The notes below the pieces were generated by a model. The model was not told where the DNA came from. It searched no databases and saw only the letters and a list, made by a program, of their open reading frames with translations. This document shows positions 44,965 through 56,067 of a stretch of 64,000 nt of DNA, in pieces. The first letter of the stretch is position 1. Every line of letters begins with the position of its first letter. The position numbers and the translations under genes are program-made. The DNA is taken from assembly GCF_053078305.1 (NCBI RefSeq), contig NZ_CP166879.1; one strand, written 5' to 3'.

Positions 44965-45134
44965 AATGGCTCACTCAAGCTTGCTCACGATTGATTCCAG
45001 TAACAAACCGTATTGTGTAATTATTTCTATAGCAGATCGCTATATAGGCTTGTATACATCGAATAATTTGAAAATCAAAGAGATAGGTAGATTTTCACTC
45101 GAAAGTAGTATTACGTGTAAGTGAGGAGTAATTA

Positions 45135-45148
45135 TTGTTCGGTATCAA
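45135..45148 (-). promoter_or_regulatory. FNR binding site of the dmsA promoter (TTGAT-accg-AACAA on the dmsA strand)
   Basis: Consensus FNR dyad ~175 bp upstream of the dmsA start codon; dmsABC is a classic FNR-activated operon. Confidence 0.7.
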
Positions 45149-45191
45149 AGGGAGACAAAAAAAGCGCCCGCAGGAGGTTTAACGCTACTTA

Positions 45192-50150: not shown

Positions 50151-50269
50151 GTGATCATCATGCACACACAAAAAAACCGCTTGCCATGCCGCAATCAGTC
50201 AGGTTACATTCCCACTGCACCTCATAAAACGGGTGCCGGGATTACCACCCCGCCGACTACACAAGCGCA

Positions 50270-50291
50270 CAACCGCGCCAGCGGTTTTTTT
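50270..50291 (+). terminator. Intrinsic terminator inside the prophage early region
   Basis: AACCGC-gcca-GCGGTT hairpin followed by TTTTTTT. Confidence 0.5.
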
Positions 50292-50470
50292 GTGCGTACT
50301 GTATCGCCACGTCTTTTTCGCGTCAGAATTATGGCGGGGCGTACGGGGCCGACTTCGGTCGGGCCGGGGTCTTGTGTAGCCGGTTGTGGTAACCCTGTAC
50401 GTCTCGCCACCCTGAGATTACCGCCTCGGGTTGGTGAGTTTTCACAACTTACTACACAAGGGGCCACACC

Positions 50471-50698
50471 ATGGCAAACCGCAAACAACAGCGCGTCCGC
50501 GCTGAGCGTCTTCACATCCGCACCGAAATCAACCGCAGACTCTGGCGCGCATCACGCGTCGCGCAAATCATGTACATCAACATGCTGCATGAACACGCAC
50601 ACGCGCTGTCAGACCGTTACTGTGCCGCCGTCTTCAGCTACCTGGCGGATGACCTGGCAGAGCTGCAGGACCTTATCAACCAGCAACACCACCACTAA
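50471..50698 (+). CDS. Hypothetical phage protein
   Basis: 75-aa ORF with AAGGGG Shine-Dalgarno; basic N-terminus, His-rich C-terminus. Confidence 0.45.
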   Translation: MANRKQQRVRAERLHIRTEINRRLWRASRVAQIMYINMLHEHAHALSDRYCAAVFSYLADDLAELQDLINQQHHH

Positions 50699-50766: not shown

Positions 50767-51189
50767 ATGAAGAACGTTAAGGGACTTTCAGATATTCAGG
50801 ATTTTTTTAACTGGATGTGGGCAGTGGATCCCCGGCTGGCTTCCCGCCTGAACGACTGGCACGACTATTACCGCCGCGCCTGTAAACAGGCCGCCAGACG
50901 CGTCACCACATACGGGGATTTCTCCTTCACCGTTGACGGCAGTTACCGCGTGGACGTGAAAGGCGATGGTGATGGTTTTGGTTTTGGTTTATTTCACATC
51001 AACGGAACCGACAGCACCGCCATCAGCTGGTCGTCGTCAGAGATGACGCTTGTTCTGGAAATGACAAACCACAGCGTGGCCGTGAAAGGTATATACACCG
51101 CAGAAGACTTTATCGGTGAATACCAGCGCCTTCTCGTGCTGTACCGGGCAGCGTTTCAGGCGGCAACTGCCGGGGAGTGCGACGCATGA
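50767..51189 (+). CDS. Hypothetical phage protein
   Basis: 140-aa ORF with GGAGG Shine-Dalgarno; stop overlaps the gpA start (ATGA). Confidence 0.5.
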   Translation: MKNVKGLSDIQDFFNWMWAVDPRLASRLNDWHDYYRRACKQAARRVTTYGDFSFTVDGSYRVDVKGDGDGFGFGLFHINGTDSTAISWSSSEMTLVLEMTNHSVAVKGIYTAEDFIGEYQRLLVLYRAAFQAATAGECDA

Positions 51190-53705
51190 GCGACCATAAC
51201 GCACAACTGGCGTACCCGTGGAACGCCCCGCTGCCGGTTATCGATCCTGAAACGTTCGGCAGAGCGCAACCAACCGCATTACGCCAGGCCATTCAGAGCT
51301 ACATCAACGAAGACATTCGCACTGACGCCAGACTGGATGAAGAAACCGTCGCCTTCCTGACAACCACAGACGAAGGGAAGCGAATTAATTCGCATCTTCA
51401 CCACGACGAAGAGCGTCGGATCAGACTGGAAAAACTGACGCGACACAAACGCGAAAATCCACCCACGCTGGTATCTGAAGCCATGGCAGAGCTGCGCGCC
51501 CTGCCGCCGTTTCTTGCCGGTCCGCTCATCCGTGACCTGGCCCGCCTGAGCCGCAAACAGGAGAGCGCACGCCGGGAAGGGCTTAAGAATAACAGCGCAT
51601 ATGCGGCGGATAACTTCGTTCGTCACGGCCTGCGTGCCCGCCTGAAACGTATCGCCCGTGTGAATGAACGCTTTGCCACCCCGGCCTTTAAGGCCACCGC
51701 CGCCCGCGAACGGCTGGATGAACTGCTTATGCTGCCGCAGCTGAGCCGTGACGAAATCCAGCGCCTTGCCACCCTGACCGCCACCGCGTTTTCCGCCGCA
51801 CTGGAGCGCGCATGTGATGAGGTCATCGAAAAGACCGGCAGGGGTGACGATGACCTGTTCACCTGGTTACTGACCTACCAGCCACTGGCACGCATGGCGT
51901 TAAAACTGGGTATCACACCACCCTGCTGGCCGTCGCTGGAAATCAGACCCGACCGCCGCACCGCCCCCGACCCGGAACAGGTGCCGGGTGCGGTCATGCG
52001 CCTTTCCTGTGCGACATGGTGGAACAGTCAGTTAAGACACCTCCGGGACATCTGGCGTGAAGAGCTGTTACGCGCCGCAGGTCTGGTGTCACGTAAGACA
52101 TCGGTATATATCAGCCATGAAGCGTTACTGGACTGGCGCGAAAAACGCCAGCGCACCCGCGATTTTCTGAAGGCCTGGGACATCGAGAACGAAGAGGGAG
52201 AACGGTTCAGCCTTGAGGATATCTACTGGGCAGGTCTCTCTAATCCGCGTAACCGCCGTAACGAGATGATGGCCTGCGTCCGGGGAATGGAGCAGGTCGC
52301 CGAAGCACGCGGCGACCTGGCGTTTTTCGTCACCGTCACAGCCCCTTCCCGTTTTCACAGCGTGAACGATGACGGCAGCCTGAACCCGAAATACTGCGGA
52401 GCAACGGTACGTGATGCCAGTGATTATCTGGTTTACCGCTTTTTCGCCGCCGTCCGCAGGGCCATCAACAAGGCCGGGCTGGGCTGGTACGGCGTGCGCA
52501 CAGTGGAGCCCCACCACGACGGTACACCGCACTGGCACATGCTGGTATTCACCAGCCCGGAAAACGAAGCCCGTATCACTGAAATCATGCGCAACGCCGC
52601 CATCAGGGAGGACCGCGCAGAGCTGGGTGATGATATCTCCCCGCGTTTTAAATGCGAAAAAATCGACCCGGCAAAAGGCACACCGGCGAGCTATATCGCG
52701 ACCTATATCGGTAAGAACCTGGACGCCAGCGCCTTCATGGGGAATGACCCGAAAACCGGCAAACCTTACGTCGATAAGGAATCAGGCAAAACCATGGCCG
52801 AAACCGTGGAGAACGCCATCGGCTGGGCGGCCCTTCACCGCATCCGCCAGTTCCAGTTCTTCGGTATCCCTCCCCGCCAGGTATGGCGCGAACTCCGCCG
52901 CCTTGCCGGGCAGATGGCCCGTAACCCGGCTGCCCCGCAGCGTCTGGACCATGACGACATTGACGCCATACTGGCCGCCGCCGACGTGGGATGTTTTGCC
53001 ACCTATATCACCCGCCAGGGTGGTGTGCTCATTCCCCGCAACACGTACCTGGTCCGCACCGCATACGAAACTGCCGAAGAGGCCAACGACTACGGCGAAT
53101 TCCCGCAACGCATTTACGGCGTCCGCGCCCCGTCACTCGGGGAGCGCTACACCATATGCACCCACCCGGACACCTGGAAACTGGTCAGACGTAAGCCGGA
53201 AAACGAAGACCGCACGGACGAGGGTTTTGACGTTGAGTGCGGCTTTGCCGCACCTTGGACTCGTGGCAATAACTGTCCCCCTGACCAGAATCTGACCATA
53301 AACGACCCGCCAGAAAGGCAGCCGGACGGACGCAGGGAGCAGCGACTTACCCTGCCGGAAGGTGATTTGGGTGAATGGTTAAGGTCACTGACCCCCACAG
53401 AGCGAAAACAACTCACCAGGCAGCTGAAAAACCCGCCACCTGACACGGAAACCGTGAAAAACGGCGGCATCAGTGCGCCCGCTGGCGGCGTTCGCGTGAG
53501 TGTCGCACTGACCGCTGAGCCACACATCACCGCACAAATCACCCGTGAGCTTGATGCGCTGGGCGTGCAGCTGCATGAAAGCGCCGTCGTTTCCGTCCGG
53601 CACGGTGCCCGCGTGCGCCTGGCTGACGGGCGCACCGCGTACTGGAATGACAGCACCCGCCGCATTGATATCACCCCCGCACCGAATACGGAGGCGCCAC
53701 AATGA
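51186..53705 (+). CDS. Rolling-circle replication initiator endonuclease (P2 gpA-like)
   Basis: 839 aa from MSDHNAQLAYPW (ATG with GGGGAG Shine-Dalgarno; the ORF track uses a GTG 9 nt upstream); HUH motif GTPHWHMLVF; size and position as in P2/186. Confidence 0.85.
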   Translation: MSDHNAQLAYPWNAPLPVIDPETFGRAQPTALRQAIQSYINEDIRTDARLDEETVAFLTTTDEGKRINSHLHHDEERRIRLEKLTRHKRENPPTLVSEAMAELRALPPFLAGPLIRDLARLSRKQESARREGLKNNSAYAADNFVRHGLRARLKRIARVNERFATPAFKATAARERLDELLMLPQLSRDEIQRLATLTATAFSAALERACDEVIEKTGRGDDDLFTWLLTYQPLARMALKLGITPPCWPSLEIRPDRRTAPDPEQVPGAVMRLSCATWWNSQLRHLRDIWREELLRAAGLVSRKTSVYISHEALLDWREKRQRTRDFLKAWDIENEEGERFSLEDIYWAGLSNPRNRRNEMMACVRGMEQVAEARGDLAFFVTVTAPSRFHSVNDDGSLNPKYCGATVRDASDYLVYRFFAAVRRAINKAGLGWYGVRTVEPHHDGTPHWHMLVFTSPENEARITEIMRNAAIREDRAELGDDISPRFKCEKIDPAKGTPASYIATYIGKNLDASAFMGNDPKTGKPYVDKESGKTMAETVENAIGWAALHRIRQFQFFGIPPRQVWRELRRLAGQMARNPAAPQRLDHDDIDAILAAADVGCFATYITRQGGVLIPRNTYLVRTAYETAEEANDYGEFPQRIYGVRAPSLGERYTICTHPDTWKLVRRKPENEDRTDEGFDVECGFAAPWTRGNNCPPDQNLTINDPPERQPDGRREQRLTLPEGDLGEWLRSLTPTERKQLTRQLKNPPPDTETVKNGGISAPAGGVRVSVALTAEPHITAQITRELDALGVQLHESAVVSVRHGARVRLADGRTAYWNDSTRRIDITPAPNTEAPQ

Positions 53706-54106
53706 CCCGCTTTTATTGCGCCATGCAGCGCCAGCGTTTTGACGAAATGATGCGCCAGCGCACGCCCTTACTGACCCTGAACAACATTGCCACGGGGCCA
53801 CAACCGGGCGATGAGCTGGAAATCACGGTCGTCAGTCCCGATCGCACCACCACGGCCATCATCACCGACATACTCAACGGACGACCGGACAGCACCAACC
53901 GCAGCTGGCTTGTCGCCGTTCGTCCGCGCCGTCCGCCCGGAGAGCCGGAGCCGCTCACGCCTGCCGGAAAAATCATGCGGCAGTACCACGAAGAGCAGGA
54001 ACACAAACACAACGCAGAACTGACCAGAACACTGGCATCGATTAACCGCAAAGCGGCAATTGCCCGCTATGTGCATTCAGCCGCAGGCAGACAATCACGC
54101 AGGTAA
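53702..54106 (+). CDS. Hypothetical protein, first gene of the accessory cassette after gpA
   Basis: 134-aa ORF; ATGA overlap with the gpA stop; ACGGAGG Shine-Dalgarno; Pro-rich central segment. Confidence 0.55.
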   Translation: MTRFYCAMQRQRFDEMMRQRTPLLTLNNIATGPQPGDELEITVVSPDRTTTAIITDILNGRPDSTNRSWLVAVRPRRPPGEPEPLTPAGKIMRQYHEEQEHKHNAELTRTLASINRKAAIARYVHSAAGRQSRR

Positions 54107-54154
54107 ACAAAGACCATGAACATAACCAGAAACAGCCAACTAAAGGAGCGCACC

Positions 54155-54325
54155 ATGAACAGCACCAGGAGGATCAGCGACAGAGAGCTTACGAAAATGA
54201 TTGAGTCGGCACAGCAGCTGCTTTCACGACAAAACCCGGTCGTGGAAGAAACATGGTGGGAGAATTTACTGGCAGCACTGACCGAACTCCGGGAACGCCG
54301 GAACAACGAAGGAGCCGCCAAATGA
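54155..54325 (+). CDS. Hypothetical small helical protein
   Basis: 56 aa from MNSTRRISDRELTKM with AAGGAG Shine-Dalgarno; the ORF-track start at 54116 lacks one. Confidence 0.45.
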   Translation: MNSTRRISDRELTKMIESAQQLLSRQNPVVEETWWENLLAALTELRERRNNEGAAK

Positions 54326-54648
54326 AGACCCCAGGAATGACCGGAAAGGAAATCATTTTACGCTACCTGGAAACGCACACACGTTTCAGCGCCCCAGAAC
54401 TGGTAGAAAAACTGGGCGTGAAAAGAACCGTCATTAATCAGGCCGCCGGGAAAATGGTACGGGAAGGCCTGCTGGTTGTGGATGGATACACGGACAAGAT
54501 AACGCATTACCGGAAGCCAACGGAAAAGGAACGACAGGAACTGGCGCAACGGGCTGAACGGCAGCAGGAAAAATCAGTCATCGAAGCCTGCAAGCGCAGC
54601 GAAATCATGAAGCGAATTCTGTTTATCTACGGCGCTGCATTCCGTTAA
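54322..54648 (+). CDS. Putative winged-helix DNA-binding protein
   Basis: 108 aa MKTPGMTGKEIILRYLETHTRFSAPELVEKLGVKRTVINQAAGKMVREGLLV...; ATGA overlap with the upstream gene; AAGGAG Shine-Dalgarno. Confidence 0.5.
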   Translation: MKTPGMTGKEIILRYLETHTRFSAPELVEKLGVKRTVINQAAGKMVREGLLVVDGYTDKITHYRKPTEKERQELAQRAERQQEKSVIEACKRSEIMKRILFIYGAAFR

Positions 54649-54661
54649 AGGAGCTGGTGAG

Positions 54662-54688
54662 TCGGGGCAAAAATTCTTTTTGCCCCGG
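54662..54688. terminator. Bidirectional terminator between the accessory cassette and the ogr-like gene
   Basis: Perfect palindrome CGGGGCAAAAA-ttc-TTTTTGCCCCG. Confidence 0.7.
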
Positions 54689-54713
54689 CGAAGCAGCAGA
54701 CAAGCGAAGCGCG

Positions 54714-54977
54714 TCAGGAACGCCGCGACAGTAGTTCAAGCGCATACCGGCGATCTTCCGGGCGCATGGCATCAACAAGAAACTTCACCATATTGCGACC
54801 GGAGCGGGCGCCGGGGCTGAGGGTATGGGAAAAGGTCATCGTACAGACGAAGGTGTGCCCGCATTCGACATCACTGCATGCACAGTACAGATCCGCAAGT
54901 TCAGGGGTTTTCCAGTCTGTCTTCCGGATGACAGCAGGTGCGCCACAGTCAGGACACCGGGCTTTAAAAATCCGCAT
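54714..54977 (-). CDS. Ogr/Delta-family zinc-finger late-gene transcription activator
   Basis: 87 aa from MRIFKARCPDCG...YCACSDVECGHTF, matching the remembered Ogr pattern CPxC...YxCxNxxCxxTF; GGGAGG Shine-Dalgarno. Confidence 0.75.
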   Translation of the reverse strand: MRIFKARCPDCGAPAVIRKTDWKTPELADLYCACSDVECGHTFVCTMTFSHTLSPGARSGRNMVKFLVDAMRPEDRRYALELLSRRS

Positions 54978-55014
54978 CTTACCTCCCGATAACACGTATC
55001 CCGGGGAAGACATT

Positions 55015-56067
55015 TTACCCGACCGGCACCACTTTTTCTTCCGCCACATGCCCGGCTTCCACATCAAAACGAAGATAAAGGTGTTCCGGTATATCGGGAT
55101 CGCTGTTCACGGCGTTCATGATTTTACGCTGAAGCGGTATCACCTCATCCTTGCGGTACGTTTCACGCGTCGTTTCCGGGTTAGGGATGGTGGCCCCGTT
55201 CGTGGGGATGATCCCCGCAAGACCGGCAGGAAAGCGGTGTGCCGTAAACACATCCTGGGCGCTGATCCCCTTGATGTTTGAAAATTCATCCTTGGCGCTC
55301 ACCTCACCAATCGGAATAATTTTCACCCCATCCGGCGAACCTTTGGGGATGTTGATGTACAGATTGCGGAAATTTCCCAGCCCCTTAGACTCCGCCACCT
55401 TCTCGCGGATCTCATCCTCCATCTCCGTGGTGATCCCAGGGTCGTTCGTATACAGCAAAAAGCCCATATGCGCCCCGTTGTTGTAGTAACGGCGACGAAA
55501 AAGGCTGGCCTCGCTGTTCAGCAGCGCCGAGTGAATGCCACCGATATAATCCGGCAGCCCGTAAATTTGCTGACGCGGATCATACATCCGCAGAAAGATA
55601 ATATCTTCCGGCGTATAGACCAGCGCGGGACCTTCCTGAAGCACCACGAACTCACCGGTTTTGCGGCGCCGGAGATACAGCGACGGAAGCGGCTCAAGTG
55701 CCACGACGTCGCCGAATACGTTACGCACCTTGAGCAGGGCGAGATCGCCGAACAACAGGTAGTCAAATACCGCCTGTTCCATCTGGTCCGTTGTGAGGCC
55801 ACCACCGGTATAGCCCCCCGCCACCATGTTACGGCGGGCATACAGCACCCCACCGTGCTGGGCGTTAAGGTTCGGGAGCTGCGCCAGTGCCAGGCGGTTA
55901 ATCGGCAGCTGCCAGTGGTTGTGTTCGTTGTCATACCAGATGTTATGGTAGTCCGTGCCGGTGGTCAGCACCGGTTCCGGCTGACCAAACGTGATTGTGC
56001 TGCCACGTGCGGGCGTGAATGCTTTTTTCGTCACGCGTGACGTTTTGTTTCTGCGTTTCTTGCTCAT
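55015..56067 (-). CDS. Portal protein (P2 gpQ-like)
   Basis: 350 aa from MSKKRRNK, ATGA-coupled to the terminase stop; size and position as P2 Q. Confidence 0.75.
   Translation of the reverse strand: MSKKRRNKTSRVTKKAFTPARGSTITFGQPEPVLTTGTDYHNIWYDNEHNHWQLPINRLALAQLPNLNAQHGGVLYARRNMVAGGYTGGGLTTDQMEQAVFDYLLFGDLALLKVRNVFGDVVALEPLPSLYLRRRKTGEFVVLQEGPALVYTPEDIIFLRMYDPRQQIYGLPDYIGGIHSALLNSEASLFRRRYYNNGAHMGFLLYTNDPGITTEMEDEIREKVAESKGLGNFRNLYINIPKGSPDGVKIIPIGEVSAKDEFSNIKGISAQDVFTAHRFPAGLAGIIPTNGATIPNPETTRETYRKDEVIPLQRKIMNAVNSDPDIPEHLYLRFDVEAGHVAEEKVVPVG

Follow-up and report, generated by a model that had tools for sequence, protein, structure and literature searches.

A lambda Ren homolog lies downstream of the gpA replication gene in a P2-like prophage of E. 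coli

We analysed the three small ORFs between gene A and the ogr/Delta-like gene of a P2-like prophage, which adjoins dmsA in E. coli 04-00955, and found that the last of them, ORF3, is by full-length sequence homology a clear relative of lambda Ren. On balance, it seems probable that ORF1-ORF3 are the distal end of the early, A-containing replication operon and comprise lytic-phase replication accessory and anti-exclusion genes, rather than a lysogen-expressed defence cassette. A sequence-only reading of the window (the whole 64,000-nt stretch of DNA that was analysed) had placed the three genes at the P2 accessory hotspot, and this placement agrees with the cos-proximal gpA-gpQ interval, a hotspot of P2 diversity and defence (Rousset et al. 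2022, PMC9122126). The ogr/Delta-like gene is the final gene of the P-Q operon and marks the right edge of the interval. The gene A product is 35% identical to P2 A and 53% identical to P88 A, and the peptides encoded by the ori nick regions of the prophage A and P2 A align (Table 1).

Table 1. Features of the prophage segment, with positions numbered along the window
Feature	Coordinates	Strand	Remarks
Pfam "Derepression" protein	50471-50698		Upstream of A, behind isrK and C4 RNAs
Gene A, rolling-circle replication endonuclease	51186..53705	+	839 aa; RefSeq start and annotation; alternative start GTG 51177
Probable ori nick region, inside A	53249..53275	+	GCACCTTGGACTCGTGGCAATAACTGT; similar to GCGCCTCGGAGTCCTGTCAATAACTGT, annotated as the ori nick region of P2
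ORF1	53702..54106	+	134 aa; predicted ASCH/DUF3850-like beta-barrel (residues 1-76) and long C-terminal helix (87-133)
ORF2, small helical protein	54116..54325	+	ATG 54116 gives 69 aa; ATG 54155 gives 56 aa (54155-54325)
ORF3, lambda Ren homolog	54322..54648	+	108 aa; ATGA overlap with ORF2; winged helix-turn-helix (residues 8-64) and C-terminal helical hairpin
Conserved non-coding element, probably cos region	54646..54719	.	~75 nt; 13-bp hairpin at 54661-54689, then GGCGAAGCAGCAGACAAGC at 54687-54705
ogr/Delta-like zinc-finger gene	54714..54977	-	RefSeq annotation and ORF list

The three ORFs are real genes, as the sequence-only reading had proposed. The same three CDS are present in the RefSeq annotation of NZ_CP035498.1, a genome that is 100% identical; all three are under purifying selection when compared with their homologs (dN/dS 0.12-0.51), and each matches a PHROG family (ORF1 at 4.6e-66, ORF2 at 1.9e-32 and ORF3 at 4.5e-29). 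Every start is preceded by a Shine-Dalgarno sequence, GGAGG or AAGGAG, located 6-7 nt upstream. The proposed chain of ATGA couplings holds for A/ORF1, where the 4-nt overlap is found in every relative, and for ORF2/ORF3, but ORF1 and ORF2 are separated, by 48 nt if ORF2 begins at its 56-aa start and by 9 nt if it begins at the ATG upstream.

Nor do the ORFs form one three-gene cassette. Compared with one relative (L002), protein identity is 57% for the C-terminus of A, 61% for ORF1, 88% for ORF2, 92% for ORF3 and 31% for Q. A sliding nucleotide comparison with another (L022) shows 95-100% identity in A, a drop to 57-71% over positions 53171-54070 and a return to about 90% in ORF2-ORF3, so that the last ~180 codons of A and ORF1 make up one divergent patch. 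GC content is 0.62 in A/ORF1 vs 0.52 in ORF2-ORF3. Judged from these profiles, the three ORFs are two evolutionary units, ORF1 (with A) and an exchangeable, lower-GC ORF2-ORF3 pair. The variability expected among relatives applies to ORF2-ORF3, which are exchanged, but not to ORF1, a backbone gene that follows A in all loci examined. In a locus with a near-identical backbone (L003), other small ORFs replace ORF3. Among 5426 complete genomes, 67 carry ORF1 and 37 carry ORF2-ORF3.

The assignment of ORF3 rests on agreement along its whole length. Its hmmscan match to phrog_142, "Ren-like exclusion protein", aligns residues 4-107 with profile positions 9-111 of 116, and BLASTP against lambda Ren gives 42% identity over the full length (E 3e-27). 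Our Ren alignment (A2) has 13 invariant columns, and ORF3 shares with lambda Ren the conserved motifs MTGKE, TH, INQAA and a C-terminal MKRxL, a similar size, and a start overlapping the gene before it, with both genes placed at the 3' end of a replication operon. Apart from a winged helix in the third protein, no motif had been recognised in the three products; the winged helix is indeed present (AF2 model, pLDDT 80.7), but ORF3 is in addition recognisable as a Ren homolog. With tblastn, ORF3 matched 170 phage records, and 513 relatives were found on viral contigs. Its own clade is distinct, with 84-93% identity within it and ~41-43% to the lambdoid group, without intermediates, and no sequenced P2-like phage in a 50,697-record phage collection carries a Ren of the ORF3 type.

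The genetic setting of ORF3 differs from that of its lambdoid counterparts, which overlap the 3' end of a replication gene, namely lambda P, a DnaC-like loader gene or a DnaB-type helicase gene. Lambda Ren directly follows a replication protein, whereas ORF3 comes after an orf91-like gene and ORF2, and its P2-like (Peduoviridae) prophage encodes gpA, a rolling-circle initiator, instead of an O/P-type initiator-loader module. A Ren homolog thus sits with a mechanistically unrelated replication system, which argues against Ren acting through O or P specifically and makes the P2-like prophage a second, simpler genetic system for the study of Ren.

In the lambda work (bioRxiv 10.1101/2021.04.19.439022), ren is translated together with O and P, ren mutants are excluded by RexAB and so form poor growth on Rex+ lysogens, with suppressor mutations in O and P, and two-hybrid data show interaction of both RexA and RexB with Ren. 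Ren protects its carrier phage and not the host, and escape from Rex is the sole phenotype known for lambda ren. To our knowledge, lambda ren has had a phenotype without a mechanism for more than 40 years, so the analogy lends ORF3 a phenotype but no mechanism. We know of no Rex sensitivity in P2-like phages.

From its predicted structure and its position, ORF1 looks like a diverged counterpart of P2 orf91 and a backbone gene tied to A. The AF2 model has a PUA-like/ASCH beta-barrel fold, an ASCH/DUF3850-type barrel followed by a long helix, and comes from the one confident prediction in five (pLDDT 86 vs about 55), with a shallow alignment as input. Its best PDB match is 3iuw, a solved homolog of P2 Orf91, and Orf91 itself matches 3iuw (5e-11) and the Pfam models DUF3850 (1.6e-16) and ASCH (2e-10). 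P2 orf91 and ORF1 each share 4 nt with the end of A, whereas in 186-like Yersinia and Klebsiella phages a gene of the orf91 family overlaps the start of A. ORF1 also differs from Orf91 in carrying an extra C-terminal helix of ~47 residues.

The link between ORF1 and Orf91 is one of fold and synteny only, because sequence comparison gave nothing significant. BLASTP of ORF1 against P2 Orf91 found nothing, a Pfam search, with the DUF3850 and ASCH models included, returned no match, and hhalign gave E values of 0.47 and, for DUF3850 sequences, 0.059, neither of them significant. The DUF3850 comparison, alignment against alignment, had a probability of 0.9% and placed 41 columns in register around a GD motif. 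In the register set by this alignment and the predicted strands, the DUF3850 signature K..E.R..DR (invariant K23, E26, R28, D31 and R32) has no equivalent in ORF1 segment 20-32. The ORF1 family is very narrow, with 3 true clusters at 50% identity in an HMM search of 1.84 billion representative proteins; its profile found nothing among PDB sequences, and tblastn of ORF1 found no match in the 50,697 phage records. A separate origin, in which the P88-type gpA, longer at 940 aa, would have been split and ORF1 would be its C-terminal part, was rejected because ORF1 has no similarity to that gpA.

ORF2 belongs to phrog_14672, with homologs of 64-69 aa found in E. coli only, and has a dN/dS of 0.15-0.51. 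The choice between its 56-aa and 69-aa forms is uncertain from sequence: the internal ATG has a strong Shine-Dalgarno sequence, and two homologs (L006 and L007) must start at an upstream ATG, giving 64 aa, because the internal Met is missing. No protein of known function was recognised among the relatives found, and tblastn against the same phage records gave only matches of E ~0.1. Five genomes carry ORF2 without the Ren homolog, so a partnership of ORF2 and ORF3 is not obligatory.

All three ORFs lie on the strand of A, and ORF3 is the last plus-strand gene after A, ORF1 and ORF2. A crude consensus search, which weak or non-canonical promoters could escape, found no sigma-70-like promoter in 53000-55200 (0 vs 0.9 expected), and no LexA box (CTGT-N8-ACAG) occurs anywhere in the window. 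The P2 tin/old locus occupies the same interval adjoining cos and is likewise variable in gene content among relatives, but tin and old are transcribed from the other strand, have their own promoter and transcript starts and are expressed in lysogens, whereas ORF1-ORF3 would be an extension of the A operon. The gene behind the Ren homolog in relatives is a short SSB gene of the same orientation, with a toxin-antitoxin or other cargo beyond it; the genes found between the Ren homolog and cos include SSB, DUF4760, a TumE-family toxin-antitoxin, HVO_A0114 and phrog_5091. The true cargo slot is this space, and in the 04-00955 prophage it is empty (0 bp). The gpA-gpQ hotspot is not uniform: its A-proximal genes (an orf91-type gene, then same-strand accessory genes) would belong to the early operon, and hotspot surveys should leave them out of their counts of candidate defence systems. 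The cassette is otherwise ordinary, consisting of phage genes that are catalogued, if unnamed.

In the reading we favour, ORF1-ORF3 would be made during lytic growth as the tail of the A operon. ORF1, which is inherited with the gpA C-terminal tail encoded immediately past the ori nick site and whose predicted ASCH/DUF3850-type barrel has lost the K..E.R..DR signature, would most likely partner gpA. By analogy with lambda, ORF3 would most likely shield the replicating phage from Rex-type exclusion by resident lambdoid prophages, or otherwise aid replication, with ORF2 as a possible partner or adaptor. What the comparisons establish is the homology, the fold, the synteny, the mosaicism and the purifying selection, whereas co-transcription with A, expression timing and a part in anti-exclusion or replication are inferences. 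More speculatively, and in our view rather unlikely in this specific form, two linked possibilities go further: the Ren homolog, with ORF2 as adaptor, could be a replication-coupled counter-defence for a gpA rolling-circle replicon, as Ren is for lambda O/P, while the gpA C-terminal tail and ORF1 could be an allele-specific determinant of replicon specificity or incompatibility among P2-like phages. If the counter-defence part were true, Ren would be a general device at the end of replication operons that keeps replication intermediates from triggering Rex-type abortive infection.

Several other readings were weighed against this one. ORF1, ORF2 and the Ren homolog might be a pure replication accessory module that aids gpA rolling-circle replication, for example in origin handling, membrane tethering or host-factor recruitment, without any evasion of exclusion. 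We give this some weight while thinking it unlikely. Ren genes accompany several types of replication module, ORF1 co-varies with the gpA C-terminus beside the ori nick site, relatives have a short SSB gene behind the Ren homolog, and the Court lab suspects a replication role for Ren (bioRxiv 10.1101/2021.04.19.439022). On the other hand, no phenotype other than Rex escape is known for lambda ren, ORF2-ORF3 are dispensable and swappable in near-identical backbones, as in L003, and the genome counts above mean that most P2-like phages do without these genes. It is improbable that ORF3 is instead a MarR-type transcription factor or antirepressor-type regulator, tuning the early-to-late switch or the choice between lysis and lysogeny with ORF2 as modulator. 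RefSeq names ORF3 "MarR family transcriptional regulator", and Pfam matches MarR_2 (3.5e-5) and GntR (4e-4) over residues 12-53, but this covers only the 40-residue HTH core, and the full-length homology is to Ren, not MarR. A full MarR domain (~140 aa, with the winged helix between N- and C-terminal dimerisation helices) is not present in the 108 residues of ORF3. The prophage moreover already encodes C, Cox, Ogr-like and Derepression proteins plus C4 RNA, and the antirepressor role suggested by the sequence-only reading is already taken by the Derepression protein. Derepression proteins of the 186 Tum and P4 epsilon type, which are also small phage regulators near A in P2-like phages, have no similarity to ORF1, ORF2 or ORF3.

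A lysogen-expressed cassette for superinfection exclusion or anti-phage defence in the tin/old hotspot, also raised by the sequence-only reading, appears very unlikely. It would fit the location inside the gpA-gpQ hotspot and the listing of an ORF2 homolog among hotspot arrangements (PMC9122126, tables), as well as the variability of ORF2-ORF3 among relatives and the PHROG category of the Ren family, "moron/host takeover". However, PADLOC-DB 2.0 gave no significant profile match, with none for ORF1 and ORF2 and only generic winged-helix matches below 20 bits for ORF3 (best MkoB, 1.2e-4, 19.5 bits), and NCBIfam gave nothing above cut-offs. The genes are coupled to A on its strand with no promoter-like site, unlike tin and old, and ORF1 is a backbone gene. 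Ren itself guards the carrier phage and not the host (bioRxiv 10.1101/2021.04.19.439022).

Between ORF3 and the ogr-like gene, a "perfect bidirectional terminator" had been proposed. The 13-bp hairpin exists and is stable as RNA (dG -33.7 kcal/mol, z -4.8), but no T-run follows the stem on either strand (GGCGAAGC on the plus strand and GACTCACC on the minus strand), and a terminator scan made no call. Because U-tails are absent on both strands, we rejected a canonical bidirectional (rho-independent) terminator. The hairpin element is probably part of cos. The 19-nt sequence after the hairpin matches the P2 cohesive end GGCGAGGCGGGGAAAGCAC at 10/19 positions, and the geometry is that of P2-type cos sites, in which the portal operon ends in a conserved element made up of a hairpin and, after it, a GGCGA-type 19-nt cohesive-end sequence. 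The whole element is nearly invariant in phage P88 and all related prophages (loci L001-L012), whatever the flanking genes, with a compensatory A/T swap in the hairpin stem, and it is invariant even across lineages whose Q proteins are only ~31% identical.

We examined the three small genes behind the prophage replication gene A, which encodes the rolling-circle replication endonuclease gpA. The region consists of an orf91-type gene and a Ren-family gene, both of known kinds, in a P2-like setting. ORF1, ORF2 and ORF3 were all found with the positions and lengths that the sequence-only reading had given, and, as it had noted, each has a strong Shine-Dalgarno sequence (GGAGG or AAGGAG, 6-7 nt ahead of the start). 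The ATGA overlaps that it had described exist between A and ORF1 and between ORF2 and ORF3; there is no overlap between ORF1 and ORF2. In pairwise comparisons with homologs, dN/dS is 0.12-0.44 for ORF1, 0.15-0.51 for ORF2 and 0.14-0.31 for ORF3, and each protein matches a PHROG family end to end, indicating that all three are real genes. The start of ORF2 is uncertain. With the ATG further upstream, at 54116, it would be 69 aa long, database homologs are mostly called at 64-69 aa, and the internal Met is absent altogether from ORF2 of the related prophage loci L006 and L007; the strong Shine-Dalgarno sequence in the present genome precedes the internal ATG.

Positions 53600-54800 match E. coli strain 04-00955 (NZ_CP035498.1) at 100% identity, and there a P2-like prophage adjoins dmsA in the RefSeq annotation. 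The annotation runs from integrase, C-type repressor and Cox through about 12 small early genes to A, two hypotheticals and a "MarR family transcriptional regulator", followed on the opposite strand by an ogr/Delta-like gene, the portal gene Q and the terminase gene P. The sequenced phages nearest by gpA are P88-like Xuanwuviruses, with ~53% identity over residues 6-749; an ogr gene beside Q is absent in P2, P88 and relatives of the L002 prophage type.

Features of the gpA-Q region and early region, with the cargo slots of related prophage loci (coordinates without a locus name are positions in the window)
Feature	Position	Strand	Remarks
ORF1	53702-54106	+	134 aa
ORF2	54155-54325	+	56 aa
ORF3	54322-54648	+	108 aa
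Non-coding element	54646-54719		~75 nt; hairpin plus GGCGAAGCAGCAGACAAGC
ogr/Delta-like zinc-finger gene	54714-54977	-	flanked by the cos-like element and Q; final gene of the P-Q operon
isrK	50217-50291		Rfam 63.6 bits; in a 320-nt gap
C4 antisense RNA	50327-50414		Rfam 79.6 bits; in the same gap
Pfam "Derepression" protein	50471-50698		75 aa; 3.1e-7; directly 3' of the isrK/C4 gap
Cargo slot	L002:6896-8982		in relative
Cargo slot	L006:5134-6921		in relative
Cargo slot	L007:5043-7402		in relative

The sequence-only reading recognized no motif in the third protein beyond a winged-helix-like fold. Pfam does detect a winged-helix core, but only a generic one (residues 12-53; MarR_2 3.5e-5, GntR 4e-4), which accounts for the RefSeq name. 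Beyond the fold, residues 4-107 match PHROG 142, "Ren-like exclusion protein" (4.5e-29), and BLASTP aligns ORF3 with lambda Ren, the protein allowing escape from Rex exclusion, at 42% identity (E 3e-27), with Met6 of ORF3 on Met1 of the lambda protein. A tblastn search with ORF3 matches 170 phage records, with 30-41% identity over ~95% coverage, and the annotated records among the matches listed carry a ren or Ren-like gene. These similarities identify ORF3 as a homolog of lambda Ren. In lambda and in lambdoid phages of Klebsiella, Enterobacter and Escherichia, ren overlaps the 3' end of the last replication gene, which is P, a DnaC-like loader or a DnaB-type helicase; of 73 lambdoid viral contigs examined, 70 have lambda P (not the terminase gene P) immediately upstream. 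The P2-type homologs in viral contigs (84-93% identity) are sharply apart from the lambdoid group (~41-43%) and always occur in the order gpA-ORF1-ORF2-ORF3. A Ren homolog behind a rolling-circle initiator is of wider interest, as it loosens the presumed tie of Ren to O/P-type replication.

ORF1 has no match in Pfam, NCBIfam or PADLOC, and tblastn against 50,697 phage records returned nothing. Its family is very narrow, with 35 clusters at 90% identity, each from Escherichia where named, and, in a set of 1.84 billion proteins, three true ones at 50%. In the AF2 model, built on an alignment with 19 homologs, residues 1-76 form a beta-barrel and residues 87-133 a long helix (pLDDT 86 for the best model, ~55 for the remaining four). 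The top PDB match of this model is 3iuw, the solved homolog of P2 Orf91 and the sole significant PDB sequence match of that protein (5e-11), so that ORF1 is matched, in structure, to a homolog of the gene in the equivalent P2 position: in the P2 record, Orf91 overlaps the end of A by 4 nt, as ORF1 does. Orf91 itself falls in DUF3850 (1.6e-16) and ASCH (2e-10) in Pfam. BLASTP of ORF1 against Orf91 found nothing, hhalign gave non-significant E values of 0.47 (Orf91 by itself) and 0.059 (an alignment of seven DUF3850 members), and the invariant DUF3850 residues K..E.R..DR are absent. Because of these sequence results, we describe ORF1 as a predicted counterpart of P2 orf91 at the level of fold and position, rather than as a DUF3850 member. 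In P2 and the present prophage the orf91-type gene lies at the end of A, whereas in 186-like phages a DUF3850 gene overlaps its start (Klebsiella RCIP0057, L099:1201-1482; Yersinia MHG55, L100:1204-1485). Linkage of an ASCH/DUF3850-type fold to gene A, on either side, recurs.

Identity, GC content and synteny divide what had been taken for a single three-gene cassette into two units, ORF1 with A and ORF2-ORF3 apart. ORF1 lies directly 3' of A in 100% of the loci examined (six from E. coli relatives, one on a metagenome contig and seven on contigs from IMG/VR), and gene content after ORF1 varies. Against L002, protein identity is 57% for the A C-terminus, 61% for ORF1, 88% for ORF2, 92% for ORF3 and 31% for Q, and at the ORF1/ORF2 boundary GC content goes from 0.60-0.63 down to 0.51-0.53. 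Nucleotide identity to the IMG/VR locus L022 is 95-100% through A to 53170, 57-71% over 53171-54070 and ~90% over ORF2-ORF3. The sharply bounded divergent patch, comprising the last ~180 codons of A and ORF1, starts just downstream of a probable ori nick site (53249-53275, judged by its resemblance to the nick region annotated in P2) and looks like an exchanged allele. Such a shared patch indicates that ORF1 is inherited as an allele with the gpA tail, which suggests that the two may work together. In five genomes whose backbones are near-identical, ORF2 is retained and other small ORFs stand in place of the Ren homolog; of 5426 complete E. coli genomes, 67 carry ORF1 and 37 carry ORF2-ORF3. 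ORF2-ORF3 is exchangeable separately from ORF1.

The sequence-only reading closed the region with a perfect bidirectional terminator. The inverted repeat at 54661-54689 has a strong predicted fold, but a U-tail is absent on both strands and the terminator scan was silent. The repeat belongs to a non-coding element with the rough consensus "CCGTTAA..GAGCTGG.GAGTCGGGGCA.AAATT.TTT.TGCCCCGGCGAAGCAGCAGACAAGCGAAGCGCGTCAG", which is near-invariant in P88 and PhiR44_2 as well as in every related prophage, across P2-like lineages with portal proteins only ~31% identical. It is kept whether its neighbour is ogr, Q directly or unrelated genes, and a compensatory A/T swap is present in the stem. A 1201-nt query spanning the cassette and the element gave partial matches in 1126 E. 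coli records, 1086 of them in the 90-95% identity band, and in phage records only the ~74-nt element matched at that level. In P2, a hairpin is directly followed by the 19-nt cohesive end; the element has equivalent geometry, and GGCGAAGCAGCAGACAAGC matches the P2 cohesive end at 10 of 19 positions. The element is thus probably this phage group's cos site and may also act as a transcript stop. ORF3 is homologous to its relatives as far as 54637, its last three codons and stop coming from the "CCGTTAA" edge; the element supplies the final codons and stop of any ORF abutting on it.

Placement in the P2 accessory hotspot holds, since Rousset et al. define this as everything from gpA to gpQ beside cos; in their tables an ORF2 homolog appears together with an SSB, under the label "hypothetical". 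The actual variable cargo are the genes between the Ren homolog and the cos-like element. Relatives carry there a short SSB (105 aa), DUF4760, a TumE-family toxin-antitoxin pair with an HVO_A0114 DNA-binding protein, and phrog_5091; in the present prophage this slot is empty. The earlier observation is largely correct, and its interpretation as an unknown accessory or defence cassette is unsupported. Superinfection exclusion or defence had been offered as one function, but the PADLOC check gave no supporting match for lysogen-expressed defence. ORF1-ORF3 lie on the strand of A with overlapping or nearly abutting frames, a scan of 53000-55200 found no promoter-like site and the whole window no LexA box, all of which point to co-expression with A in lytic growth. 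An antirepressor had also been proposed; that role is already filled by the Derepression protein behind the isrK/C4 RNAs. Given the Ren homology and the predicted co-expression, ORF3 would most likely act as Ren does in lambda, shielding the phage from Rex-type exclusion as it replicates, or in an associated replication function. Ren and O both interact with RexA and with RexB, and the authors of that work suspected a replication role for Ren (10.1101/2021.04.19.439022).

Other features were seen elsewhere in the prophage. The isrK/C4 RNAs and the Derepression gene form a P1 immI-like antisense-RNA/antirepressor layout within the P2-like early region, immediately upstream of the A operon segment. 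A strong terminator-like hairpin (52293-52319, +; 10 pairs, 8 of them G-C, then a T-run) lies within the gene A coding sequence on the sense strand, and the enterobacterial sRNA family STnc130 has a full-length match (45055-45189, 122 bits) at the integrase end.
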